Shown here one piece after another: positions 3,368 to 62,155 of a DNA stretch of 64,000 nucleotides. Origin of the DNA: a bacterium. GTDB lineage: Bacteria; Patescibacteriota; Minisyncoccia; Phycocordibacterales; PALSA-1337. Location of the stretch: NCBI GenBank assembly GCA_025355565.1, contig JANXZK010000002.1, forward strand, positions 15,238 through 79,237, read 5' to 3'. Each line of letters begins with the position of its first letter. Within the stretch, counting starts at the first letter, position 1. A program made the translations under genes and the position numbers. The notes beneath the pieces were generated by a model. The model did no database searches. It saw only the letters and a list, made by a program, of their open reading frames with translations, and had not been told where the DNA came from.

Positions 3368-4594
3368 TTATAGCTCCCACGGGTATACAGTCATTGTTCT
3401 GTCTTTATTTTCTCCATATAGAGCCACTGTCTTGTAATCACCCGATGCATATTCCCTGGAAAAATACTTCATAGCCGAGGTATCTACGTTAGAAAAATTA
3501 AGTTTCGTTTCTATAGGCAACGGGATATTCTTTTCCTTTAGGATGAAATCTATCTCTCTTTTATCGGTTGTTCTCCAGAAATAAACTTTACTAATTCCGT
3601 GCTTTTTGATCAATTCCGAAAATATGCTTGTCTCGAAAATGTTTCCCAATGTCTCTTTTGGAAATTCCTTTAACCATAATATGCTCATAAGCCCTGTATC
3701 AAAGAAAAAAATCTTGGGTGTCTTGAAGAGCTCCTTCCTCTTGTTCTCGCTGTAGGGTCTAACAAGTTTGATGATGTATGTTTCCTCCAAAAGGAAAAGG
3801 TATTTTTCCACGGTTATCTTTGATAAGTTTACCGTGTTCGCCAATTCTGTCACATTGAGAAGCTGCCCGCTCTGCGACGCTAATACTTCTAACAATCGAT
3901 TGAACTTATCGATTTCTTTTATCTCCGCCAGATCCCTGATATCCTTCTTTATATATGTATCGATGATCTGATTCAGATAAGCGCTTTTCTTCTCTGTATC
4001 AGGGGTTAATACTATTTTCGGATAACCGCCATACCTGACATACTCTTCATAATGAGAAATGAGCTCCGATATCTTTTTTGAGGTATGTATTTCGCCCCAG
4101 TCCACAAAAAAATCTTTGAACAATAACAACTCATCGAACGACAGATTAAATATATCGAAATTCACAGTTCTGCCAACCAAAGAATCCTTGAATTTGCTTT
4201 TGATATTGAAACTAGACGAACCGGACACGATCAGTTTGATTTCTTTGTGATGATCGGCAATGATCTTGAGAAATGACGAAGGGTTCTCAAGGTATTGGAT
4301 CTCATCTATGAATACGAACAGTTTTTTTGGTGAGATCGCTAATCCCTCCTCCTTTAGATATGACAAGAACGACTCAACACCGTCATCCAAAATTTCCTTA
4401 AGCCGACTATCTTCGAGATCGATAAAGTGTGCTGATTCCCCTTTTTCTTGAACGATTTTCGCTAAATAATACAGAATATGAGTCTTACCGACTTGTCTCG
4501 CGCCATGAAGTACGATGATATCATCAGTAAACAAATACGGCGCTATTTTATCGATTATGATTCTTTTATACAATATTTCTGGGATTTTGATCAT
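3368..4594 (-). CDS. AAA+ ATPase of the COG1373 family (AAA_14 + DUF4143), paralog of the adjacent gene
   Basis: VLHGARQVGKTHIL Walker A, VFIDEIQ Walker B, and the same architecture as 2124..3248. It is strongly AT-rich compared with its neighbours. Confidence 0.75.
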   Translation of the reverse strand: MIKIPEILYKRIIIDKIAPYLFTDDIIVLHGARQVGKTHILYYLAKIVQEKGESAHFIDLEDSRLKEILDDGVESFLSYLKEEGLAISPKKLFVFIDEIQYLENPSSFLKIIADHHKEIKLIVSGSSSFNIKSKFKDSLVGRTVNFDIFNLSFDELLLFKDFFVDWGEIHTSKKISELISHYEEYVRYGGYPKIVLTPDTEKKSAYLNQIIDTYIKKDIRDLAEIKEIDKFNRLLEVLASQSGQLLNVTELANTVNLSKITVEKYLFLLEETYIIKLVRPYSENKRKELFKTPKIFFFDTGLMSILWLKEFPKETLGNIFETSIFSELIKKHGISKVYFWRTTDKREIDFILKEKNIPLPIETKLNFSNVDTSAMKYFSREYASGDYKTVALYGENKDRTMTVYPWEL

Positions 4595-12303: not shown

Positions 12304-12825
12304 TTTTTATAATTTTACGCACCCCTCTCCACTTTATTAATAATTCGTCCTACGCCGCTCTCGCGAGCTTCGAAGGACAAGGAAGGAGAGTTAAATGCGG
12401 CTAGTAAACTAACTGATAATCTAACTCGATTCCACTTCTTGTGTCTGACGCTATCGACACGCTAGATACAAGATTTTGTGGGTACACGAAAGACGAACTT
12501 TACAAACTAATTATTATTCAGTTTTCAAAGTTCGTTACTTGTCCTACATAGCTTTATGCGAAGTAGGACTCCCCATCGCCTTATGCTCTGGGACGAGTAT
12601 GTAATAATTACGAGACCGCTTACACACTCGTTGCAAAACATTATAGCTCACTATTCACCTATCATGCAAAAGGGCTATGTGTGGATAACATTATTTACTA
12701 AAAAGGGCATCAAATCCATGCAAATCCATGCTTTTGTGGCTCTGTGTAGTAATAGAGCCATTCTATAGGATATGGCATCGAAAGTCAATGAGCCGCGAGA
12801 TGTTACCTGACTCTCTCAGGTTAGG

Positions 12826-26402: not shown

Positions 26403-27770
26403 TTAATTGACACCACCGATCCTTTCTTTCAAATAGCCGAGTAGATCCGCCTCCGCGACTCTCTCCTGTTTACCAGAATCTCGATCACGAACAGTGACTC
26501 CATTGCCCTTTTCAATAGTCTCAAAATCTACCGTGACACAGAGCGGTGTGCCGATCTCGTCCTGACGGCGGTAGCGTTTACCGATGTTGCCGTTGTCGTC
26601 GTAGTCGGTCATCGGAATCTCTTTCTGAATAGTCTTGAAGATCTCCTCAGCTTTCTTTATGAGCTCAGGCTTATTGCGCAGCAATGGGAACACGGCCACC
26701 TTATACGGCGCAACTCTAGGATGAAGCCTTAGATACACTCTCTTTTCCTTTTTCTCTTCTTTGCCTTCCTCCTTTACTGAGCCCATCTCATCTTCGGTGT
26801 ACGCATCGCAAAGGATGGCCAATACCGTTCGGTCCAATCCAAATGACGGCTCGATGCAATGCGGGATGAATCTCTCTTTTGTTTCTTCATCATAATAAGA
26901 CAGACCGACTTTGCTAAAGTCTGAATGCTGTTTCAGATCGAAATCTCCGCGATACGCCAAACCGTATAGTTCTTTTTTGCCAAATGGAAAATCATATTCG
27001 AAATCGATGGTACGTTTTGAATAATGGGCACGGTCTGATTCTGGGACTTCCAACTCATGGACTTTAGATGCGGTTAGCCCGACATCGTTCATAAATCCTT
27101 TCATCTCCGTTCTGAAATACTCGAAAGACTCTTCCCATTTCTTTGGGTTGACGAAATATTCTATCTCCATCTGTTCGAATTCGCGCGAACGGAAGAGGAA
27201 ATCTCTTGGGGCGATCTCATTTCTGAAGGCCTTGCCTATTTGAGCCATTCCGAATGGCAACCTCGGGTGTTGAGTATCGAGTATGTTTTTGAAATTGACA
27301 AACATGCCCTGCGCCGTTTCTGGACGTAGATACGAGATCGAAGAGTCGTCCTGGATAGCACCGACATGCGTCTCAAACATCATATTAAATTTCCTCTCTG
27401 CGCCGAGCTCGCCGCCACAGTCTGGACATTTCTTCTTTGTCGCCGCATCGCCTTCTATCTGATCGGCGCGAAATCTATGCTTGCATTTCTTGCATTCAAC
27501 TAGCGGATCAGCAAAACCGGCCGCATGACCGCTCGCCTGCCAGACTTTTTGGTTCATGAGGATAGCGGCGTCTACCTTGAACATATTCCTTTTCCCCCAA
27601 ACAAAACGTCGATACCAAGCTTCTTTGATATTCCATTTCAAGGCTTCGCCGAACGGCCCATAATCCCATGTCCCGGCCAAACCGCCATATATCTCCGATC
27701 CTTGAAAAACGAAACCGCGTCGCTTGCATAGGGCGACGATCGCGTCCATTTTGTCCTCTTTTTTATCCAT
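26403..27770 (-). CDS. glyQS: Glycyl-tRNA synthetase (α2 homodimeric, eukaryote/archaeal type)
   Basis: The N-terminus DAIVALCKRRGFVFQGSEIYGGLAGTWDYGPFG is the hallmark of α2 GlyRS. Class II motifs and the C-terminal anticodon-binding domain are present. Confidence 0.88.
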   Translation of the reverse strand: MDKKEDKMDAIVALCKRRGFVFQGSEIYGGLAGTWDYGPFGEALKWNIKEAWYRRFVWGKRNMFKVDAAILMNQKVWQASGHAAGFADPLVECKKCKHRFRADQIEGDAATKKKCPDCGGELGAERKFNMMFETHVGAIQDDSSISYLRPETAQGMFVNFKNILDTQHPRLPFGMAQIGKAFRNEIAPRDFLFRSREFEQMEIEYFVNPKKWEESFEYFRTEMKGFMNDVGLTASKVHELEVPESDRAHYSKRTIDFEYDFPFGKKELYGLAYRGDFDLKQHSDFSKVGLSYYDEETKERFIPHCIEPSFGLDRTVLAILCDAYTEDEMGSVKEEGKEEKKEKRVYLRLHPRVAPYKVAVFPLLRNKPELIKKAEEIFKTIQKEIPMTDYDDNGNIGKRYRRQDEIGTPLCVTVDFETIEKGNGVTVRDRDSGKQERVAEADLLGYLKERIGGVN

Positions 27771-30489: not shown

Positions 30490-33400
30490 TCATGAAATAC
30501 TGAGCTTCAGTTGTAATCCCCCAACGTTCGAGAAATCGCCAGTGATATTTGCAAAAGAGATGCTCTTTGTCGAAGTCGCCGAAAGAATAGCCCTTTCGTT
30601 CCTCTCGATGAATATACGCCCCTCGCCGCTAGTTTCCACCTTGAGATCGATCTTGTCGCTCACAGTGAGACCTTTTTGTTTGCGCAGATCTTGGATAGCA
30701 CGGACGAGTTCACGAACAGTGCCTTCTTCCTTGAGGGCCGATGTGATGGCTGTGTCCAATGAGACTTTGTAACCACCAGAATCGATGAACAGATGCCCAT
30801 CCTTTTCTGTGATTCCAACATTCGATGGTTCTGTGAACTTGCGTGAGATTACGTTTTTGACATTCAATTTATCCTTGACGATGTCTCTAAAATCATCGGT
30901 GATGTCCACTATCTTTGATCTCGACTTTGCCTTGGCCGTCGAGTTTGATGTAGAACTCATGCTATTGAAACCCAATTCATAAGTCAGACTAGCGAGAGGT
31001 TGGCGTACACCTATCTTCTTGAATGATCTGAGTGACAGAGCAACTTCAACGATCTTTCTGGTCGTCTCCATATCATCTAAAAGTTTCTGATCGAACCTTC
31101 TTACTTTTGGCCAATCCTCCAAATGCACGCTCTCAACCCTACCTCCTTCCGTACCACCACTTTCTCTGTAGAGATATTCTGCGAAAAATGGGGCAAATGG
31201 TGCCATCACTTTTGATAGAGTGATGAGCACATATCGGAGTGTCATCATGGCCTGAGCTTTCCCAACATCCCCGCCATCATGACCGCCCTTAAATCGATCA
31301 CGAGAGCTCTGCAAGTACCACTGAGAAAGATCTGCGACAAAATCCTTGATGGCACGCGACGGTTCCATGAATCTGTATGCGTCTAGATTCGCTGTAACCG
31401 TCCCGACCAATTGATCCAATCGCGCAATGATCCATTTATCCAGGACATTTTGCGATTCAAATCTGCTATTTTGATTTTTAAACTTTCCATTCTCATCGTA
31501 CAGTTTGTAAAATGAAAGCACATTATCAACCATATTGAATACTTTTTTCACCACTTCATCAACAGTTTTTTCTTCAAAATTCTTGGAATCTCCCGGTTGA
31601 TTGACTGAGTACATCCAAAATCGCAGCGCGTCTGCGCCGTATTTATCCATCATCGTGATCGGATTTACGATATTGCCTATAGACTTGCTCATCTTCTTGC
31701 CTTTCTCGTCGAGAAGGTGACCGAGACAGATGACATTCTCATAAGCTCTACCCTTACCCATGATCGTACCGACCGCATGCAACGTGTAAAACCAGCCACG
31801 AGTCTGATCGATCGCTTCTGAGATAAAATCGGCTGGATAATTGGTCTTCTCCACGAATTTCTTGTTCTCAAATGGATAATGATCCTGTGCGAATGGCATA
31901 GAACCAGAATCGAACCAGACATCCATCACTTCCTTGGCACGAGTCATGACACCACCACATTTACATGGCAACTTCACGGCATCGATGAATGGTTTATGCA
32001 GGTCGAGCTCGAAATCAGCATTGTGTGGAAGGATAGAGAAATCTACTGGTCTGACCTCTGCATTTTTTAAGAGGTCTCCAAGATTCGACTCGACACACTG
32101 CGTGTGGTCAAGTCCCCTGGCGGCACCGATCAACATGCCACCGGACAATTCATGCGTCACGATCAGAATCGTTTTACCTTCATATTGTTTGTCTACATCA
32201 TAAATAAAACCGCCCATACGTTTCTTCACGTCTCCCCAGTTCTCGAGACCACCTGGTCTAACTGTAAACCTGTCACCGTTGGTCGAATCTTTGAGGAATT
32301 TATAGAAATCATTGATACTGCGCCCACTCCATGACTTACAATCGATCTCCTGGATGCGTGAATCTTTGATCACATGCCGCTCATCTAGGCCAAGAGTATT
32401 TCTCACCATGTCTGCTGTTTCTAGAGTGCGGATAAATGGCGAAACAATGATCATATCGATGTGTCTTTTTTTGAGAGTTAATGCGGTCTTTTGAACTTGG
32501 ATGCGTCCTTCTGCCGTCAGATGATATGGGTCTCCAGGATCGCTGCTTACAATATCTTTCGTATTATTCTCCGCTTCTCCATGTCGCATGACGAAATATG
32601 TGTTATTTGGCTTTTTCGCAATATCCGCGACAGACCCTACAACCCTCTTCTCATGACAGGTATCACACGTCCACACGGGTAATGGCGTACCCCAATAACG
32701 TTCGCGAGATATCGCCCAATCCTTAACCTCACGCAACCATTCACCAAACCTTCCCTCTTTGATGTGTTCTGGTTCCCAATGGATTTCTTTGTTTTCTCTG
32801 ACGAGTTTCTTGCGGAGTTCTGACATGCGGATATACCAACTGTCCCTCGCGAAATATATGAGCGGAGTATGACATCGCCAACAAAACGGATATGTATGCT
32901 CATATTTTTCCTTCGCGAACAAGAGTCCACGACCCGCGAGATCTTTGATGATCGCGACATCGGTATTCGGATCTTTCACGAATGCGCCCGCGAGGAACCC
33001 AGTCTCCTTCTTGAATGTTCCATCGTCATTCACCAGATGATATTTCGGTAGTCCAACTTTCGTCCCAATCTCAAAGTCATCTTGACCATACATAGGTGCG
33101 AGATGCACTATCCCTGTACCATCTGCCGTCGTGACAAAATCTGCGGCATAAACTTTGAATGCATTCGTGAGCTTTTCGCTTTCAGTGCCTTTTACATTGT
33201 CCTTCAAAAATGGGTAGAGTGGTTCATATGAGAGACCGGCGAGTTCGGAACCTTTGATAGTTTCGATGATCTCCGGATTGTTAAATCTATCTCTCAAAGC
33301 GTCAAACCGATCTTTCGCGAGGATCAAGATCTCGGTTGGTATATCTGCTCGTGCCACTCTGATCTTCACATAGTCGATCTCTTCTCCGATCGCTAGCCCA

Positions 33401-34131
33401 ACATTTCCGGGCAGTGTCCACGGCGTCGTCGTCCAAGCGAGCAACGATATAGGTAAATCCGGATCACTAATTTTCAATCTAAACTTGACATACAAGGAGA
33501 GATCCTTGACCGTCTCATACCCTTGGGCCAACTCATGTGAAGACAATCCCGTGCCACAACGAGGACACCACGGGACAACTTTGTAATCTTTATATAACAG
33601 ATCTTTGTTGTCTGCTTCCTTGATGACATTCCAGACTGATTCGATGAATTTTGGCTTGTAAGTGATATAAGGATCTTTGAGATCTACCCAATAGCCCATG
33701 CGGTTTGTAAAATCCTCCCATTCATGGACATATTTCCAAACACTCTCTTTGCATTTGTCATTGAAAGCGCTGATACCATATGTTTCTATCTCTTTTTTGG
33801 ATTTGAGACCGAGTTCTTTCTCCACCTGCAATTCTACCGGCAATCCATGTGTATCCCAGCCCCCTTTCCTGCGCACATGATATCCACGCATAGTCTTATA
33901 ACGTGGGATAGCATCTTTGAATGCACGGGCTTCGAGATGATGGATACCTGGATGACCATTGGCTGTTGGTGGTCCCTCATAAAAGACGAACTCGCCTTTC
34001 GGAGACTTTTTCGATAGAGATTTCTCGAATATTCCCTGTTCTTTCCAGAATGTCAAAACCTTCTCCTCGCGCTGTGCGTGGGAGGATTTTGGGACATTGT
34101 TCAGCTTTTCACTATTTAAAGTTTTCATCAT
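30490..34131 (-). CDS. ileS: Isoleucyl-tRNA synthetase (type 2) carrying an inserted histidine-phosphatase (PGAM-family) domain
   Basis: PPTANGHPGIHH (HIGH), VPWCPRCGTGLSSHE, WAISRERYWGTPLPVW, DVWFDSG and KMSKSIGN. An insertion of ~190 aa (aa ~508-700, nt ~32034-32610) has RHGEAENN, SPFIRTLETA and ILIVTHELSGG, the histidine-phosphatase signatures. Confidence 0.88.
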   Translation of the reverse strand: MMKTLNSEKLNNVPKSSHAQREEKVLTFWKEQGIFEKSLSKKSPKGEFVFYEGPPTANGHPGIHHLEARAFKDAIPRYKTMRGYHVRRKGGWDTHGLPVELQVEKELGLKSKKEIETYGISAFNDKCKESVWKYVHEWEDFTNRMGYWVDLKDPYITYKPKFIESVWNVIKEADNKDLLYKDYKVVPWCPRCGTGLSSHELAQGYETVKDLSLYVKFRLKISDPDLPISLLAWTTTPWTLPGNVGLAIGEEIDYVKIRVARADIPTEILILAKDRFDALRDRFNNPEIIETIKGSELAGLSYEPLYPFLKDNVKGTESEKLTNAFKVYAADFVTTADGTGIVHLAPMYGQDDFEIGTKVGLPKYHLVNDDGTFKKETGFLAGAFVKDPNTDVAIIKDLAGRGLLFAKEKYEHTYPFCWRCHTPLIYFARDSWYIRMSELRKKLVRENKEIHWEPEHIKEGRFGEWLREVKDWAISRERYWGTPLPVWTCDTCHEKRVVGSVADIAKKPNNTYFVMRHGEAENNTKDIVSSDPGDPYHLTAEGRIQVQKTALTLKKRHIDMIIVSPFIRTLETADMVRNTLGLDERHVIKDSRIQEIDCKSWSGRSINDFYKFLKDSTNGDRFTVRPGGLENWGDVKKRMGGFIYDVDKQYEGKTILIVTHELSGGMLIGAARGLDHTQCVESNLGDLLKNAEVRPVDFSILPHNADFELDLHKPFIDAVKLPCKCGGVMTRAKEVMDVWFDSGSMPFAQDHYPFENKKFVEKTNYPADFISEAIDQTRGWFYTLHAVGTIMGKGRAYENVICLGHLLDEKGKKMSKSIGNIVNPITMMDKYGADALRFWMYSVNQPGDSKNFEEKTVDEVVKKVFNMVDNVLSFYKLYDENGKFKNQNSRFESQNVLDKWIIARLDQLVGTVTANLDAYRFMEPSRAIKDFVADLSQWYLQSSRDRFKGGHDGGDVGKAQAMMTLRYVLITLSKVMAPFAPFFAEYLYRESGGTEGGRVESVHLEDWPKVRRFDQKLLDDMETTRKIVEVALSLRSFKKIGVRQPLASLTYELGFNSMSSTSNSTAKAKSRSKIVDITDDFRDIVKDKLNVKNVISRKFTEPSNVGITEKDGHLFIDSGGYKVSLDTAITSALKEEGTVRELVRAIQDLRKQKGLTVSDKIDLKVETSGEGRIFIERNERAILSATSTKSISFANITGDFSNVGGLQLKLSIS

Positions 34132-36577: not shown

Positions 36578-36631
36578 GGGTCAATACTAACAGAGATGAG
36601 CAAAGAGTGCGACAAAGTCGATTCCGACCAA

Positions 36632-36677
36632 TAAAAAAGCCGGTTAGCACACCGAGCTGTGTTGTCTGTGCTAACCG
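36632..36677 (-). terminator. Putative Rho-independent terminator (minus strand) in the glyA-argS intergenic region
   Basis: On the minus strand: CGGTTAGCAC-(17-nt loop)-GTGCTAACCG followed by cttttttatt, a 10-bp perfect stem. Confidence 0.45.
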
Positions 36678-36883
36678 ACCGAATTGGACCGACACCAAAT
36701 GTTAATACAGAACAGTCCCCGTAAAAGCAGGAGTCAGAAGAACCAATAGTTGATTCTCGAGCTTCATCTTCGCAAGTCCTTTCTTCTTTAACCGGAATTG
36801 ATATGTGTGACGCATAATGAGAGGGTTGCTGTTTCCAACCCTCCCTTCAACCAGAAAAACAAAACAACTATTCAAATATTAGT

Positions 36884-38137
36884 TTATGCTTCCTTCAAAA
36901 TTTTGTCAATCTTCTCAGCGATCTTTTTGAAATCTCTCTCCTTCTTTCCCCGCGTCGTCTCAGCGGCAGTTCCTAGTCTGATACCTGACGGATCAAATGG
37001 CGGTCTCGTATCAAATGGTATGGCATTTTTATTCACGATGATGCCATCCTTCTCTAACTTTTCACTGGCATCTTTACCGGAGACAGCGCCCGCTCCGAGA
37101 GAATTCTTGACCCCGCCTTGCCACGTGTCAATAAGGACGAGATGACTATCTGTCCCATTTGAAATAATCCTCCAGCCGCGCTTCATGAGTTCGTTAGCTA
37201 ATGTTGCGGCATTTTTTATAACTTGTCTTGCGTATTTTTTAAATTTAGGTTGAATAGCCTCTCTCAGTGCCACGGCAACCGCCGCGACCTGATTCATATG
37301 TGGCCCTCCCTGAAGCCCTGGGAAAACCGCCTTGTCTATCTTTTTATCCAATTCACGAGTATCGCGTTTTACGAAAATGAGCGCCGCGCGTGGACCACGG
37401 AGAGTTTTGTGCGTTGTTGTCGTAACGATATCGGCAAATGGGAATGGTGATGGATACACTCCGCCAGCGACTAGTCCGGCGATGTGCGACATATCAACCA
37501 TCAGTATCGATCCTGCAGCATCAGCCACTTCCCTCATCCGAACCCAATCGATGATCCTCGGATAAGCAGTGTAACCGCAGACGATGATCGCTGGCTTCTC
37601 TCTGACCGCCGTTTCTCGCAATTGGTCATAATCCAAAACCTCCGTCGTCTTGTCGACACCATAAGGAACTTGCGTCCAGAATTTTCCTGAAGCAGTGACT
37701 TTCTGACCGTGAGTGAGGTGACCGCCTTGATCCAAAGACATACCCATGATCTTTGGAGCAGCGATCGTTGTCGGCGGGACAGATTTGTCCGCTGATGGCA
37801 CAGACTTCACATGCGTCGCTCCTAACACCCCGAGATATACTGCCAGATTCGCTGGTGAACCGGAGAGAGCTTGAACGTTCACGTGCCAGTCAGTCATGTT
37901 GAGCCCAAACAGCTTCAGTGCCCTCTCTTTGCAGAGCTCTTCGATCTTGTCAACGATCTCGTTGCCACCGTAATATCGCTTGCCGGGATAACCCTCCGCG
38001 TACTTGTTCGTCAATTCAGAACCGAGAGCGTCCAAGACATCATCGGAAACATAATTCTCCGAAGCGATCAGGTTTATAACTTTTTTTTGACGTTTCTGTT
38101 CTGCGCCGATCAGTTTCTTTATTTGTATATCTTTCAT
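36884..38137 (-). CDS. glyA: Serine hydroxymethyltransferase
   Basis: LIASENYVSDDVLDALGSELTNKYAEGYPGKRYYGG and the PLP-binding region ...TTTTHKTLRGPR. A start at 38173 is also possible. Confidence 0.9.
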   Translation of the reverse strand: MKDIQIKKLIGAEQKRQKKVINLIASENYVSDDVLDALGSELTNKYAEGYPGKRYYGGNEIVDKIEELCKERALKLFGLNMTDWHVNVQALSGSPANLAVYLGVLGATHVKSVPSADKSVPPTTIAAPKIMGMSLDQGGHLTHGQKVTASGKFWTQVPYGVDKTTEVLDYDQLRETAVREKPAIIVCGYTAYPRIIDWVRMREVADAAGSILMVDMSHIAGLVAGGVYPSPFPFADIVTTTTHKTLRGPRAALIFVKRDTRELDKKIDKAVFPGLQGGPHMNQVAAVAVALREAIQPKFKKYARQVIKNAATLANELMKRGWRIISNGTDSHLVLIDTWQGGVKNSLGAGAVSGKDASEKLEKDGIIVNKNAIPFDTRPPFDPSGIRLGTAAETTRGKKERDFKKIAEKIDKILKEA

Positions 38138-38236
38138 GGATATATCGTAGCATATTTCATTGATAAATCTCATTGTTGAATAGCCCCCTACACCTCACCC
38201 CCGAACGACCGAGCATTCTTTCTTAGCAAGATATTA

Positions 38237-38274
38237 ATAAAAAAGTTCCCGTTGCACCCGATGCGCAACGGGAA
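38237..38274 (-). terminator. Putative Rho-independent terminator (minus strand) upstream of glyA
   Basis: On the minus strand: TTCCCGTTGC-(loop)-GCAACGGGAA followed by cttttttatt. Confidence 0.45.
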
Positions 38275-38563
38275 CCGAACCATGAACTCCGAACCACACC
38301 ACTATGAAAAGTCCTCGTAAACCGAGCCACGAACAGCGTAGCTCCCTTCCCCGAGAACCAGAGGAAGGAAAAGCGAAAATGCTACAAAAAGACAAAGAGC
38401 TGCGCTGTCCGACGTCGCACCAGCCGAAAGGCTAGAGAAGGCGACGACGTCGGACACACGCATCTGGCGACCGTGATGGAAAGATGAACACCGTAAAAAC
38501 TGTAAAATAGCGATAGCGCCGCTCTGTCATTACTCTGTCATGAGACTACTCCTACCTGATCAT

Positions 38564-39256
38564 TTATGCAAGCGAGTTATGCACAAGCTCCATAACCATA
38601 CTGTGGATAACTTCTGGGCACATCAACTTCCCTTTTTTGTCACAACAGTCGATGCGTTTCCAATCTCTTCTCGCCTTGGTGAGACTTATATATGTCTTGA
38701 CGACATCGATCTGAAATCGTTGATCCCTCTCATGTTGATCGCGAGCGCCGTTCTTCTTGCCGAGATATCCACGGCTCGATTTCTTTTTTACGAGTTGTTT
38801 CGAGTATTTCGGCGGCACATAGAGATACACGACTAGCTCCGGACGAGGCAGACCGATCTCGTCATATTCGGCATGCTCGAGAAACTCGATGAATCGTTTC
38901 CTCGCCGCACCTCGGAATTTTGTCGCCTGAAAAGCTGTATTACTCGATGTGTATCGATTGCAAATGACGACCCCATCTCTCAGGGCATCGTAGAGAGCTA
39001 CCTTGGCCATCGCCCGATCGAGCATGTATGGAAGCGAAGACATATATGGAGACATATGACGAAAATCACCAAAGTCACCTTTCAATGCCCGACCTGTCAA
39101 CGCACCAAAGAATGAATCCTCATAACGAGGAAAATCGAAATATGTCGTCTTCACTCCCAGTTTTTCCAGAGCTTCTAGCAAAAGTTTCGCCTGCGTGGCC
39201 TTGCCCGCACCGTCACCACCTTCAACGACGATCAGTTTGTTGTGAATATTTTTCAT
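38564..39256 (-). CDS. tmk: Thymidylate kinase (eukaryote-like type)
   Basis: P-loop IVVEGGDGAGKATQ, FPRYEDSFFG, and CNRYTSSNTAFQATKF...GLPRPELVVYLYVPP. These align with eukaryotic-type TMPK. The longer ORF begins at 39271. Confidence 0.75.
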   Translation of the reverse strand: MKNIHNKLIVVEGGDGAGKATQAKLLLEALEKLGVKTTYFDFPRYEDSFFGALTGRALKGDFGDFRHMSPYMSSLPYMLDRAMAKVALYDALRDGVVICNRYTSSNTAFQATKFRGAARKRFIEFLEHAEYDEIGLPRPELVVYLYVPPKYSKQLVKKKSSRGYLGKKNGARDQHERDQRFQIDVVKTYISLTKARRDWKRIDCCDKKGKLMCPEVIHSMVMELVHNSLA

Positions 39257-40905: not shown

Positions 40906-41535
40906 ATGTCCATCATCACCAAAAAACAGATCGTCGAACTCGTAAAGTCTGGTGCACTCGTATTCAAACCAGGCCTAGACTTATTTCAACTACAAGAACA
41001 CTCTGTTGATCTCCGACTCGGATACACTTTCATGCTTCCAAAGATGTGGCACATGACGCCGCGTGGTCGTGAATCGTTGGACATCACTCATTTTGACAAG
41101 AGAAATCACGAGTATTTCGACGTGATCGAACTCGAGCAAGGACAATATTTCGAATTATTGCCACAGGAATACATCCTCGTCTCCACCTTAGAATCAGTGA
41201 AGGTGCCCAATAACCTGATGGGTGTTCTTTACCCTAGATCTTCGACAAACAGAAAAGGAATGTCCTTGGACTTGACAGGCATCATCGATGCCGGTTACGA
41301 CGGCCAACTAGTGCTACCGATCAGGAATAATACCCGTTCTCAAGCGATCAGACTCTTCCCTGGCGAACGTCTATGCCAAGTGGTATTCGAAGAATTAGCC
41401 AACCCAGTTGCGCCGAGACCCAGCAAATATCATCAGAAAGACATCATCGAAGGCGTGATGATGGAAAAGAGAGATGAGACCGAACTCATATCGAGTGGCG
41501 ATATAAAAGCACTTAAAGAAAAGTACAAAATATGA
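40906..41535 (+). CDS. dcd: dCTP deaminase / dUTPase-family protein
   Basis: GIIDAGYDGQLVLPIRN and the β-barrel dUTPase-fold pattern. Confidence 0.75.
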   Translation: MSIITKKQIVELVKSGALVFKPGLDLFQLQEHSVDLRLGYTFMLPKMWHMTPRGRESLDITHFDKRNHEYFDVIELEQGQYFELLPQEYILVSTLESVKVPNNLMGVLYPRSSTNRKGMSLDLTGIIDAGYDGQLVLPIRNNTRSQAIRLFPGERLCQVVFEELANPVAPRPSKYHQKDIIEGVMMEKRDETELISSGDIKALKEKYKI

Positions 41536-55399: not shown

Positions 55400-55472
55400 G
55401 CGCCCTTAGCTCAGTTGGTAGAGCGACCCCTTTACACGGGGAAGGTCAGGAGTTCGAATCTCTTAGGGCGCA
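55400..55472 (+). tRNA. tRNA-Val (anticodon TAC)
   Basis: GCGCCCT-TA-GCTC-AGTTGGTA-GAGC-G-ACCCC-TTTACAC-GGGGA-AGGTC-AGGAG-TTCGAAT-CTCTT-AGGGCGC-A. Perfect 7-bp acceptor, D-loop with GG, T-loop TTCGAAT, anticodon UAC. CCA is not fully encoded. Confidence 0.85.
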
Positions 55473-55603
55473 CCGAACGAAGTGAGTGAGGTGTGCCCTA
55501 GCGAGCCAACTGCTTGGCTCGCGCAAGAGATTCGAAAAGGTCGAATCTATTTCTGAGGACGTAGTCCGAAGAAATAAGAGACCTGTACAGGTCATGTAAG
55601 GAC

Positions 55604-55622
55604 CGAATCTCTTAGGGCGCAC
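55604..55622 (+). repeat. 19-bp perfect direct repeat of the tRNA-Val 3' end (CGAATCTCTTAGGGCGCAC; first copy 55455..55473), an att-like duplication
   Basis: Seen directly. The copies are 149 bp apart. The intervening 130 bp contain a 9-bp stem hairpin (GCGAGCCAA/TTGGCTCGC), a 14-bp palindrome (GACCTGTACAGGTC) and a third partial copy (GGTCGAATCT). Confidence 0.6.
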
Positions 55623-55674
55623 AATAGATGACGTAGCTATTACGGTGGGTTAATAAACATGATAGAATATATTT

Positions 55675-59672: not shown

Positions 59673-59790
59673 GTTAAATATATTTATTAATGATTGATAA
59701 TGTTTGACCAATATAATTGTACCACACCCAGATACGCAGATTATACCATGCGCGGCTACAGATCAAAGATGAAAACCGAAAATAATCTTG

Positions 59791-59862
59791 TCCCCTCGGT
59801 TGGAATCGAACCAACATCAACGGCTTAGAAGTCCGCTGTTCTATCCATTGAACTACGAGGGG
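59791..59862 (-). tRNA. tRNA-Arg (anticodon TCT), unusual C1:G72 acceptor start
   Basis: Minus strand: CCCCTCG-TA-GTTC-AATGGATA-GAAC-A-GCGGA-CTTCTAA-GCCGT-TGAT-GTTGG-TTCGATT-CCAAC-CGAGGGG-A. Perfect acceptor, D and T stems; T-loop TTCGATT; anticodon UCU. The 31-39 pair is an A/G mismatch. Confidence 0.75.
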
Positions 59863-60137
59863 GCTAGCGGTATATTAGCATTTATTATCGAACTTTGTTT
59901 AGAGACGCGCAGATCGAGCACCTTTATAGCATTCTCCAGTGAATTCTGGTCAAAAGGCAATCTACCGTTGTCCCTCACCTCTGGAACGATAGATATAGCA
60001 GAGTCGACACGATGATACGAACTCACTCCTACGATGATGAGCGTGATAGCGACGACGCAGGTCACGACACTGATGATCACCCAGTCTTTGAATGGATCCC
60101 TACCCATATAATGGATATTTGTCTTTAATTTGCTCAT
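59853..60137 (-). CDS. Hypothetical small membrane protein
   Basis: ORF with one TM helix (VIISVVTCVVAITLIIVGV). Its last 10 nt overlap the tRNA-Arg 3' end, so its reality or exact ends are uncertain. Confidence 0.3.
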   Translation of the reverse strand: MSKLKTNIHYMGRDPFKDWVIISVVTCVVAITLIIVGVSSYHRVDSAISIVPEVRDNGRLPFDQNSLENAIKVLDLRVSKQSSIINANIPLAPS

Positions 60138-61228: not shown

Positions 61229-62155
61229 TTATGAATCCAAAGCCAAACCCGCGACGATCACATAATCCATCGACTCTTGCCTAGACAACGGTGGAATATA
61301 TGAATCTATATCAAAAGCATTTTGCCACGTGTTCGCGACGCTAACAGGACAATTTGTAGCAAAGATCGAATCTAGCTGTTTAGTTTCATATTGAATGGCG
61401 CCAGTCCCAGTCAAAATGACCTTGTTGATCATAGCATCCGTCTTGGACTTCCAATATTCGATGGTATGCTTGACCTCCTCCGCTAGAGTCACATTGTTAG
61501 CCGCCGTCGAAGTAAAGCAGATGACTCCTCCAGAAACGACGTATAGTCCTGTCTTGTTTTTCATTAGATGCACGATGAGAGAGGTTTTGTCCGCCTGATT
61601 GTCGATAGCGGCACGCGCGATGGATTTTGGTGCCACTTCGAAAGTGACCGGCTGAAGGCCCAGACTCTGCAGAAACTCGATCTGCTTGTCGATATAAGTC
61701 TTCGGGACCACAGACACGCTGGCACGAAGCACGCCACCGGAAGCGGCGAGCGGCATCAAGTCGAAATAGAAGACTGCGTCTTTGGCTGACAATGGTACAT
61801 TTTCCTCTAACTTGAATTCGATATTTTGCGCGATGTTGGCGACCGAATCGCCAATTACATCCGTCTGGAATAGGTATGCTTTCTCTTCCGGAACGGATAC
61901 GGCGACATAGGATAGATCATTTTTCTCGATAAATGTCTTCAGAGTGTCTCTCAATACCTTCTCATCTTTCACATCGCCCCCGTGGACCGTGCCTACGGGC
62001 AGATCTATCGATGCGAATCTATCTATCACATGTCCATGGGTAGTCGACGCGTATTCCAGACAGCGTATCGCGTCATCGGAAATCTCCAAGCCAGCGAATC
62101 TCACGCTCATGAATCTCGGTGGAGGGAAAAGTTTGAAGAACAGAGACTGGTGCAT
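61229..62155 (-). CDS. pilM: Type IV pilus assembly protein PilM (actin-like ATPase fold)
   Basis: 308 aa with the actin/FtsA-like fold pattern (GLEISDDAIRCLEY...; VILTGTGA). Confidence 0.65.
   Translation of the reverse strand: MHQSLFFKLFPPPRFMSVRFAGLEISDDAIRCLEYASTTHGHVIDRFASIDLPVGTVHGGDVKDEKVLRDTLKTFIEKNDLSYVAVSVPEEKAYLFQTDVIGDSVANIAQNIEFKLEENVPLSAKDAVFYFDLMPLAASGGVLRASVSVVPKTYIDKQIEFLQSLGLQPVTFEVAPKSIARAAIDNQADKTSLIVHLMKNKTGLYVVSGGVICFTSTAANNVTLAEEVKHTIEYWKSKTDAMINKVILTGTGAIQYETKQLDSIFATNCPVSVANTWQNAFDIDSYIPPLSRQESMDYVIVAGLALDS

Follow-up and report, generated by a model that had tools for sequence, protein, structure and literature searches.

The tmk-glyA gap and its probable reading strand

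The window, the whole stretch of 64,000 nucleotides analysed here, contains between tmk and glyA a gap that was described in an earlier note as ORF-free, highly structured and a candidate for a non-coding RNA. The start of glyA is most likely at 38137 and not at 38173, because public gene calls give a protein of 417 aa and a conserved −10 box lies at 38144-38152, and the gap is therefore 426 nt long. Among the listed ORFs, none that is fully contained in 38174-38563 exceeds 53 aa. Longer ORFs merely touch the edges of the gap (37871-38179 and 38540-38836, both on the plus strand), and are shadow ORFs opposite glyA and tmk, respectively. Regarding a mobile-element origin, no similarity to the gap was found in phage and plasmid collections.

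The high degree of structure was borne out by folding of the gap region, since both strands were more stable than their dinucleotide shuffles, with energies of −146.1 kcal/mol for the minus strand (z = −4.5) and −106.1 kcal/mol for the plus strand (z = −5.3). The structured element is most likely read on the minus strand and not the plus strand, because a terminator hairpin followed by a T-run occurs in the minus orientation only and the minus-strand fold is better by 40 kcal/mol. The GNRA tetraloop proposed earlier is indeed present as GAAA on the plus strand, but the transcribed minus strand reads UUUC at this place, and the loop is not conserved in L085, the closest relative. As the RNA is placed on the minus strand, the argument from a plus-strand GNRA loop does not apply. 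A plus-strand RNA carrying this loop was rejected, as neither a promoter nor a terminator was found on that strand, its fold is the weaker of the two, and the loop is unconserved. Thus, the core reading of a candidate non-coding RNA is supported, with its strand corrected to minus.

The downstream gene shows signals of its own. An extended −10 element, TGCTACGAT (38144-38152, minus strand), is followed after 6 nt by the ATG of glyA (38135-38137), the whole unit spanning 38135-38152. The arrangement of TGNTANNAT, 6 or 7 nt and ATG is found at glyA in most relatives, and also at argS and many other genes of the window. No Shine-Dalgarno motifs were found in the genes of this genome, and −10 boxes abut many start codons. 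glyA is apparently expressed from its own promoter as a leaderless mRNA. Promoters that abut start codons without Shine-Dalgarno motifs change how the intergenic regions of such genomes should be read.

Predicted promoter, DnaA-box motifs and terminator

On balance, and with moderate confidence, we read the gap as holding a separate minus-strand gene whose product is a structured non-coding RNA of ~300 nt. The gene would be one copy of a cassette that adjoins glyA in ~30 species-level genomes of Paceibacterota (CPR), and that consists, in this order, of a DnaA box, TTGACA, a spacer of 16-17 nt with GGAG as its last bases, TAnnnT, an RNA 70-620 nt long and a terminator.

The predicted promoter is of the sigma-70 type. 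Its −35 element, TTGCAT (38566-38571, minus strand), overlaps the stop codon of tmk (38564-38566) and aligns with the −35 elements of relatives (TTGACA, TTGCAT or TTGCAA), which lie 16-17 nt from the −10. The spacer between TTGCAT and the −10 hexamer TAGTCT is 17 nt long and ends in GGAG; GGAG and TAGTCT together occupy 38543-38552 (minus strand), are conserved, and follow the family pattern GGNG-TAnnnT. Transcription is predicted to start at ~38536 (±2), about 7 nt past the promoter and inside a conserved YAGAG. The promoter went uncalled in a generic consensus scan, TAGTCT agreeing at only 3 of 6 positions, and the start site was therefore predicted from conservation alone. The positions of the promoter elements are conserved in L085, L083/L003 and L086, and TTGNNN, a spacer of 16-17 nt and TAnnnT are kept in 30 relatives. 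Matches to TTGACA-N10-14-GGAGTA were found in 20 of 127 loci (~0.5 expected by chance, by our own estimate), and immediately adjoin glyA, save a few weaker ones that are probably due to chance.

Two DnaA-box motifs lie on the upstream side of this promoter. The first, TTATCCACA (38602-38610, minus strand), is perfect, falls within the final codons of tmk and precedes the −35 by 31 nt; a pattern search recovered it as TGTGGATAAC at 38602-38611 on the plus strand with 0 mismatches. The second, TGTGCATAA (38577-38585, minus strand), differs from TGTGGATAA by 1 mismatch and stands at the place typical of the family, in which the box is followed by C, 3-4 nt and the −35. The position and orientation of this box recur in relatives, and a DnaA box with at most 1 mismatch was found within 45 nt of the −35 in 23 of 30 relatives' promoters. 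Of 21 promoters whose −35 is close to the consensus, 9 carry a box, the background rate being 0.022 per 66 nt. As judged from the motif, the RNA gene is probably under DnaA control. DnaA boxes could also mark a replication origin (oriC), and this candidate was rejected: the cumulative GC skew falls monotonically over all 64 kb, and the absence of any turn in the window indicates that the locus is not an origin; moreover, the locus has only two DnaA boxes.

The terminator occupies 38237-38276 on the minus strand, and was identified by a terminator scan as a 14-pair stem-loop (38244-38276) followed by UUUUUUAU. Read from 38276 to 38244, the stem has 8 G-C pairs among its 14 and a loop of 5 nt, is followed by TTTTTATTAA, and is classed as an intrinsic terminator. 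The hairpin energy is −23.2 kcal/mol, and the element ends ~100 nt before glyA. The terminator-like hairpin that had been placed at 38246-38274 with a 10-bp stem thus corresponds to the RNA's own predicted Rho-independent terminator; its core is an 11-bp perfect repeat (38245-38255 / 38265-38275) within the 14-pair stem, and with its T-run it is predicted to terminate minus-strand transcription only. A strong terminator was found 23-165 nt before glyA in all 37 relatives examined, namely those with an upstream gap, with energies of −17 to −31 kcal/mol except in L056 (−9.5). With a model of the 3' module (R1) that was built from distant relatives only, the window's clade being excluded, the terminator was the top match in the 64-kb window (29 bits, E about 6e-6; runner-up 14.6 bits). 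R1 also matches a dut terminator in L003/L083, and some of the similarity of the 3' modules may reflect a type of terminator that these genomes use generally.

Structure and conservation of the predicted transcript

The predicted primary transcript spans 38237-38538 on the minus strand (~300 nt), has a G+U content of 62% and lacks a conserved ORF. Its fold (−118.9 kcal/mol, z = −4.6) is multi-branched in both the MFE and the centroid structure, with several separate hairpins. The RNA is taken to be non-coding because its longest internal ORF has 53 aa and because indels that are not multiples of 3 fall in conserved stretches, including one of 1 nt within the best-conserved core. That the gap is instead decayed coding sequence, i.e., a remnant of dut, or a gene for a peptide of at most 53 aa, is extremely improbable. 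In relatives, the place between tmk and the RNA is indeed taken exactly by dut (127-156 aa), and the gap is about as long as dut. However, tblastn with the Dut proteins of four relatives found no match in 38001-38700 (best E = 1.4) and none anywhere in the window at E<=1e-3. Moreover, where relatives have the homologous RNA, it follows a dut gene that is intact and is therefore a separate element. A coding reading is further opposed by the lack of a conserved ORF, by 1-nt indels that break the frames, and by the lack of an ATG at the predicted transcription start, which leaderless translation would need.

The 5' half of the predicted RNA varies between lineages, whereas its 3' domain is better conserved. 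Near the 5' end, after a repeated ACAGAG, lies the small hairpin AGCG-GCGCUAU-CGCU (38509-38523, minus strand). In most relatives this spot, right after YAGAG, is occupied by a hairpin whose sequence is unrelated, and these hairpins are only weakly better than shuffles (mean z = −1.0). The small hairpin is followed by a long hairpin (38406-38456, minus strand) found by an inverted-repeat search, with arms at 38406-38417 and 38445-38456. The earlier note had seen its perfect outer stem and the enclosed AGCC-N4-GGCT (38422-38433), which reads AGCC-UUUC-GGCU in the RNA; the stem measures 12 bp, not 11. In L085 the 12-bp stem is preserved via two double changes (G-C to A-U and A-U to G-C), while the apical part of the hairpin differs.

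In the 3' domain, all on the minus strand, a helix with one C/U-rich and one G/A-rich arm is joined by a second helix or pseudoknot that encloses a small hairpin, by a G/U-rich tract and by the terminator. In the first helix (S1, 38345-38368), CCUUCC (38363-38368) pairs with GGAAGG (38345-38350); re-reading of the sequence placed the arms of the CCTTCC/GGAAGG hairpin that had been noticed earlier at these same positions. The C/U-rich arm of S1 is part of a family-wide UUCCUCC / CCUUCC motif, and the k-mers UUCCUC and UUCCUCC are enriched. The second helix (S2, 38310-38359), an alternative pairing or pseudoknot predicted by RNAalifold from 4 sequences, joins GGUUCUCG (38352-38359) to CGAGGACU (38310-38317) and encloses the hairpin Pb, GAGCUACG-CUGUU-CGUGGCUC (38324-38344). 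Over S1, S2 and Pb together, 85% of cells are paired, compared with 48-57% when the partners are slid. The covariation check with relatives that had been proposed earlier yielded the two double changes in the 12-bp hairpin. Covariation in the core, with five sequences, is not significant, since in 126-223 of 500 trials shuffles covaried as strongly as the real alignment (173 of 500 for the core helices). In the L040 clade (3 sequences), double changes occur at eight pairs. The motif noted earlier as repeated was recovered as GGUUCGG...GGUUCGG in the G/U-rich tract (38277-38303), just 5' of the terminator, and GGU/UGG-rich tracts likewise precede the terminator in most relatives.

Within clades, the body of the RNA is under purifying selection, as judged from the alignments, because RNA identities of 0.64-0.85 lie far above those of 0.35-0.44 at saturated synonymous sites. 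The identity is 0.64 over 258 nt between the window and L085, against 0.35 at the 4-fold sites of glyA; the corresponding pairs of values are 0.85 and 0.37 for L040/L047, 0.81 and 0.44 for L040/L051, and 0.97 and 0.89 for L083/L003. RNA interiors also fold more stably than their dinucleotide-shuffled versions (mean z = −2.35; 11 of 19 below −2). In some clade members the RNA reaches ~610 nt, with 81-85% nucleotide identity and a consensus of 166 predicted pairs. Between lineages, global RNA alignments drop to an identity of 0.45-0.48, as for the window and L083 (glyA 84%) and for L012 and L022 (glyA 95%). Homologs of the RNA were found by blastn and nhmmer in the closest lineage only, and an nhmmer profile of the RNA core matched L003 alone among 80 GTDB loci. 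A metagenome-wide scan for the core GGGASCYACGNTGTTCGTRG gave 38 loci, all attributed to chance except L125, which is identical to L083. As the RNA bodies are unalignable beyond the closest relatives, "family" stands here for a common architecture together with short motifs and the 3' module. Conservation, whose absence the earlier note would have held against an RNA, is nevertheless present, since relatives have homologous or positionally equivalent RNAs that are under purifying selection.

The same comparisons bear on the proposal that the element acts as DNA, such that the DnaA boxes, the promoter and the terminator are selected and the RNA is a by-product. Roles proposed at the DNA level are a DnaA titration or regulatory site, an insulator of tmk/dut against glyA, and transcription-driven supercoiling at the glyA promoter. 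This proposal accords with the DnaA box, the −35, the GGAG/−10 and the terminator being the most widely conserved parts, and with an RNA body that diverges fast and changes about ninefold in length. It is nevertheless quite improbable in view of the within-clade conservation of the RNA body relative to synonymous sites, the excess folding energy of the interiors and the stem retained by compensatory changes; the lack of a GC-skew inflection likewise opposes an origin-type role.

Known RNA families were not recovered at the locus. With Rfam 15 at gathering thresholds, the whole window gave 2 tRNAs only, and at E<=10 the segment 38000-38750 gave nothing but two chance matches of 13-14 bits. Among relatives, 16 loci gave 0 matches at the gathering threshold, and seven loci gave nothing relevant at E<=5. 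No tmRNA was found in the window by ARAGORN, and no tmRNA, RNase P or SRP motifs were seen on reading the locus sequence, in agreement with the earlier failure to fit these RNAs by eye; tmRNA, RNase P RNA and SRP RNA were rejected on these grounds. 6S RNA was rejected on the basis of the multi-branched fold, which is unlike a rod with a central bubble, the cassette lengths of ~70-620 nt and the lack of a match to a 6S model. A highly divergent housekeeping RNA of one of these four types, missed in CPR by the Rfam models, would fit the gene layout, which with its own strong promoter and terminator resembles that of a stable RNA, and would recall the proteobacterial 6S genes, which also lie upstream of the folate gene ygfA. 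It is very improbable, however, given the searches above, the predicted structure and a length range among relatives that is incompatible with such constrained RNAs. A literature search found no description of an RNA of this kind in Patescibacteria. The locus is therefore best described as, most likely, a real, unclassified and lineage-specific non-coding RNA gene, as predicted from its sequence and that of its relatives.

Linkage to glyA, proposed role and comparison with known systems

The cassette lies directly upstream of and codirectional with glyA in at least 30 relatives. This near-constant placement is what is expected of a cis-acting element, and a gene for a trans-acting RNA has no obvious need of it. 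The cassette might accordingly be a glyA leader, in which the DnaA-box promoter reads into glyA via a regulated terminator (by a riboswitch, T-box-like or protein-mediated attenuation) and serves as a second, conditional promoter. This reading, which we consider unlikely, is also favoured by a similar cassette upstream of argS in L023, L049 and L055, and by the resemblance, seen by eye in the window and L085, of the 3' strand of S2 (CGAGGACU) to the 3' arm of the terminator (CGGGAACU), so that an alternative pairing would be possible. A read-through glyA mRNA might moreover be translated, as operon genes here are translated without Shine-Dalgarno motifs. However, when the duplex energy of the upstream 70 nt with the 5' arm of the terminator was compared with shuffles at 38 loci, no excess complementarity was found (mean z = +0.6, none below −2; window +1.3), and the lack of a detectable antiterminator argues against a riboswitch or attenuator. 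In addition, the terminators are among the strongest possible, with 11-14 GC-rich pairs, energies of −20 to −31 kcal/mol and 5-8 U, and glyA has its own conserved promoter abutting the ATG. The RNA interior is unconserved between lineages whose glyA genes are 75-85% identical and its length ranges from ~70 to 620 nt, both unlike a ligand-binding aptamer, and no riboswitch or T-box model matched at E<=10. Finally, L083, L004 and L131 carry a cassette of this promoter type that runs convergently to glyA and has nothing downstream. A riboswitch or attenuator was thus rejected for want of an antiterminator and of cross-lineage aptamer conservation, and because of the separate glyA promoter.

An antisense RNA against leaderless mRNAs was also rejected, because predicted duplexes with the 5' ends of 55 genes of the window do not single out glyA or its neighbours. 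Pairing of 30 RNAs with their own glyA 5' ends was no better than with shuffles (mean z = −0.1), and CUUUUCAU, an apparent "anti-AUGAAAG" motif, was dismissed for this reason.

Under the favoured reading of a stand-alone RNA gene, transcription would begin at the TTGCAT/GGAG-TAGTCT promoter, with the two DnaA-box motifs on its upstream side, and would end ~100 nt before glyA, at a Rho-independent terminator that is very strong and apparently unconditional. glyA would itself be expressed separately, from the promoter 6 nt ahead of the ATG. By binding to the boxes, DnaA would set the level of the RNA, and the abundance of the RNA would therefore track the replication-initiation status. The RNA presumably acts after its release, most likely by protein binding or scaffolding, via its conserved 3' domain. 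Its position beside glyA and the dTMP/folate gene cluster points to a part in supplying one-carbon units or thymidylate. The functional part of this reading is a guess. A bolder and quite doubtful proposal is that the RNA is the first of a CPR-specific class of DnaA-controlled regulatory RNAs, that its level reports the status of replication initiation, and that it binds, with its conserved 3' domain, to serine hydroxymethyltransferase or some other thymidylate-cycle enzyme and tunes it. Human SHMT1 is reportedly regulated by RNA, which such enzyme tuning would parallel. If this proposal is true, the supply of one-carbon units and dTMP would be coupled to DNA replication in bacteria whose regulatory repertoires are minimal.

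CPR bacteria (Patescibacteria) have tiny genomes with few recognisable regulators, and to our knowledge almost nothing is known about their regulatory RNAs. The cassette offers a concrete, searchable pattern that recurs in about 30 species-level genomes. If control by DnaA holds, the replication initiator would be tied directly to a non-coding RNA beside the thymidylate/folate cluster.

How does the predicted RNA compare with known systems? Folate/one-carbon genes and aminoacyl-tRNA synthetase genes are often controlled by riboswitch or T-box leaders. The locus resembles the ZTP, THF-I/II, glycine and T-box leaders in having a structured RNA and a terminator directly before glyA (before argS in some relatives). 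Unlike these leaders, it shows no model match and no antiterminator, its terminator is apparently unconditional and very strong, its interior is unconserved across lineages, and glyA has a promoter at its ATG. The large RNAs OLE, ROOL, GOLLD, raiA and HEARO are similar in that clade members here reach ~610 nt with 81-85% identity where synonymous sites are saturated, and these very well conserved versions would be among the few large bacterial non-coding RNAs without a known function. They differ in that no Rfam match was found for the locus, the window copy has ~300 nt and those of some relatives have <150 nt, and the large RNAs have no counterpart of the DnaA-box promoter and the glyA linkage.

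In many proteobacteria, the 6S RNA gene (ssrS) lies just upstream of the folate gene ygfA. Like 6S RNA, the locus is a discrete structured non-coding unit upstream of and codirectional with a separately expressed gene for a folate one-carbon enzyme. The predicted RNA differs in lacking a 6S covariance match, in being multi-branched instead of rod-like, and in its length of ~70 to 620 nt in relatives.

CcnA of Caulobacter crescentus is a 182-nt cell-cycle non-coding RNA that has a CtrA box in its promoter, is encoded in the replication origin, and works by pairing with 5' UTRs (PMC8959179). The locus described here has a DnaA box in place of the CtrA box, is not at an origin and has no sequence similarity to CcnA; its mRNAs are apparently leaderless, and pairing with glyA 5' ends is not enriched. 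What the two have in common is a non-coding RNA promoter that carries the motif of a master regulator of replication or the cell cycle, such that the level of the RNA could follow the replication cycle.

The tmk–glyA gap and its surroundings

The gap between tmk (38564-39256, minus strand) and glyA (36884-38137, minus strand) is moderately supported as an independent gene for a noncoding RNA of ~300 nt on the minus strand at 38237-38538. The source organism is a CPR bacterium; the public sequences closest to its glyA product share 68-85% amino-acid identity with it and come from MAGs that carry the labels Candidatus Taylorbacteria, Paceibacterota or Parcubacteria. The locus sits among thymidylate/folate genes, which encode dCMP deaminase, thymidylate synthase, dCTP deaminase and DHFR, and glyA is followed downstream by argS and ileS. 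To collect homologous loci, proteins were looked up by exact identity and GTDB genomes were scanned. The gene order in the three nearest lineages (glyA-region loci L083/L003, L085 and L086-L089) is dCMP deaminase, tmk, dut, a 245-552-nt gap, glyA, argS and ileS, and the homologous noncoding region is downstream of an intact dut. By comparison with L083, L085 and L086, in which dut sits between tmk and the RNA, this gene has been lost from the window's lineage; tblastn detected neither a dut remnant in the tmk–glyA gap nor any match to the relatives' Dut proteins across the 64-kb window (E≤1e-3). A gene of the dCTP deaminase/dUTPase family is located at 40906-41535. Separately, the isoleucyl-tRNA synthetase (30490-34131, minus strand, 1213 aa) contains an inserted His_Phos_1 histidine-phosphatase domain at residues 513-678, an architecture also observed in relatives.

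All features listed in the earlier note, which had read the region as a candidate noncoding RNA, were found in the sequence. The region is indeed ORF-free, its longest internal ORF being at most 53 aa. The outer stem pairs 38406-38417 perfectly with 38445-38456 (12 bp) and encloses AGCC-N4-GGCT, the CCTTCC/GGAAGG hairpin lies at 38345-38368, and the terminator-like hairpin has an 11-14-bp stem at 38244-38276. Searches of Rfam 15 returned two tRNAs and nothing else over the whole window, no true match on 38000-38750 at E≤10, and zero matches in the loci of 16 relatives at gathering thresholds and in seven loci at E≤5. No tmRNA was found in the window by ARAGORN, and literature searches found no prior description of such an RNA. 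A conserved reading frame is ruled out by one-nucleotide indels within the best-conserved stretch, and a coding region was rejected for lack of both a conserved ORF and an ATG at the predicted transcription start. Mobile DNA was likewise rejected, since no similarity of the locus to phage or plasmids was found.

Both strands were observed to fold more stably than dinucleotide shuffles, the minus strand (−146.1 kcal/mol) being 40 kcal/mol more stable than the plus strand (−106.1 kcal/mol). A T-run follows the hairpin at 38244-38276 on the minus strand only, identifying it as a minus-strand intrinsic terminator. The predicted RNA is 62% G+U.

Conservation and structure of the RNA

Within clades, the RNA itself is under selection. 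RNA identity between the window and L085 is 0.64 over 258 nt, against 0.35 at the 4-fold sites of glyA, which are saturated. The corresponding values are 0.85 over 600 nt and 0.37 for L040 versus L047, and 0.81 and 0.44 for L040 versus L051. Alignment of close relatives revealed four conserved blocks: 1) a promoter-like ATAACTNNCTTGCA-N12-TAGGAGTAnnnT, whose window copy overlaps the tmk stop codon, 2) a 12-bp hairpin, whose pairing survives in L085 through changes on both sides of two pairs (G-C to A-U and A-U to G-C), 3) a core, CCUUCC..GGAAGG / GGUUCUCG..[GAGCUACG-CUGUU-CGUAGCUC]..CGAGGAC, and 4) a G/U-rich tract with a strong terminator.

The core helices are pairing-compatible in all sequences of the window's clade, with 85% of cells paired versus 48-57% in slid controls; their covariation is not significant at five sequences. 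The helices CCUUCC/GGAAGG and GGUUCUCG/CGAGGACU may exclude each other or combine into an H-type pseudoknot. The ~610-nt RNAs of the L040 clade share a 166-pair consensus, with eight pairs altered on both sides. Trimmed of 30 nt at the 5' end and 50 nt at the 3' end, the RNA interiors were more stable than dinucleotide shuffles (mean z = −2.35; 11 of 19 below −2). A 3'-module covariance model derived solely from 20 distant relatives gave its top match in the whole window at 38239-38327 (minus strand; 29 bits, E ~6e-6; next match, 14.6 bits) and recovered the expected sites in L085, L086, L083, L003 and L004. This model also matches the dut terminator in L003/L083, and part of its signal may therefore be generic terminator style.

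Promoters and cassette architecture

A matching cassette adjoins glyA in ~30 species-level genomes. It comprises one to three DnaA-box motifs (TGTGGATAA / TTATCCACA) at a fixed 4-5 nt from the −35 element (mostly TTGACA), a spacer of 16-17 nt that ends in GGAG (occasionally GGCG, GGTG or GGGG), TAnnnT, and YAGAG a few bases further on, after which there is usually a small hairpin, unrelated in sequence. The RNA body spans ~70-620 nt and includes both a G/U-rich tract and a C/U-rich motif (UUCCUCC / CCUUCC / AUUUCC). In all 37 loci examined, a strong terminator lies 23-165 nt upstream of the glyA ATG. A DnaA box with at most one mismatch was found within 45 nt of the −35 element in 23 of 30 promoters (background, 0.022 per 66 nt); the window has a perfect motif at 38602-38610 and one with a single mismatch at 38577-38585. 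Cumulative GC skew is monotonic over the window, so these boxes are not origin markers. Another perfect motif, TGTGGATAAC (12680-12689, plus strand), occurs in a 520-nt ORF-free gap at 12304-12825, where Rfam gave zero matches and no GGAG-type promoter was recognised by eye.

No Shine-Dalgarno motif was found upstream of 55 window genes. Many have an extended −10 box resembling TGNTANNAT that ends 6-7 nt before the start codon, as for glyA (TGCTACGAT, 38144-38152), argS (TGTTAGTAT, 36581-36589) and the genes at 26403-27770, 30490-34131 and 61229-62155. This arrangement points to leaderless mRNAs as the usual type in the organism. Most relatives have the same element ahead of glyA. With its own promoter and the terminator in between, glyA would form a transcription unit separate from that of the RNA. 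Several relatives contain a conserved micro-ORF of 14 codons that has a −10 box of its own (MLTTAYKSIWSSFV, MLMNSTRRTWSSYV, MLINSRKITWSSFS) just 5' of glyA, between the RNA terminator and glyA (L040 ~3890-3935; the equivalent position in L047 and L046; L015 and L028). It could encode a leader peptide, and has no equivalent in the window.

Two tRNA genes also drew attention. An extended −10 box, TGCTAATAT, in 59863-59880 stops 7 nt short of the mature 5' end of tRNA-Arg (59790-59862, minus strand). Transcription of this tRNA may be leaderless, in which case RNase P would perhaps not be needed for 5' processing. The final ~20 nt of tRNA-Val (55400-55474, plus strand), GAATCTCTTAGGGCGCAC, recur ~150 nt downstream at 55603-55623, which looks like a scar of integration or excision at the tRNA.

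The glyA–argS gap (36578-36883, minus strand), together with 36880-36909 in the end of glyA, may be a second cassette or else a long 3' UTR of glyA. The final glyA codons (IDKILK) make up TTGACA-17 nt-TAAACT, and the next ~240 nt show partial conservation in L085 and contain a G/U-rich tract as well as a strong terminator (36636-36682). The gap is the second-best match of the 3'-module model (14.6 bits, E = 0.044), and L023, L049 and L055 have a DnaA-box / TTGACA / GGAGTA cassette at the equivalent site upstream of argS. A second unclassified RNA near glyA, a ~300-nt structured cassette with a similar promoter and convergent with glyA, was observed on the minus strand of L083 (4284-4625) and L004 (5640-6055), both with TTGACA-N12-GGAGTA, and of L131 (~2400-2700; TTGACA-17 nt-TACTAT). 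Its neighbours are glyA and the gene that follows, which is argS in L083 and L004; no DnaA box was found at it in L003, of the L083 lineage, or L004.

Possible roles and known counterparts

An attenuator or riboswitch is disfavoured as an account of the gap: the 70 nt 5' of the terminator pair less well with its 5' arm than shuffled sequence does, arguing against antiterminator pairing (n = 38; mean z = +0.6, none below −2), the terminators themselves are very strong, and the RNA interior lacks conservation between lineages. Antisense control of leaderless mRNAs was rejected, since predicted pairing with gene 5' ends did not single out glyA and pairing with the cognate glyA start was at chance level in 30 genomes. 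The data are best explained by an independent gene with DnaA boxes at its promoter and a constitutive terminator, whose product is one of an unclassified, fast-evolving yet selected RNA lineage closely linked to glyA in Paceibacterota. Tentatively, DnaA would set the level of this RNA, which would act in trans, probably by binding protein, in a role tied to one-carbon or dTMP metabolism.

Among known systems, two come closest in concept. One is the noncoding RNAs that adjoin folate genes, as in 6S-ygfA. The other is CcnA, a noncoding RNA driven by a cell-cycle regulator (PMC8959179). By the membership tests, the window RNA belongs to neither.
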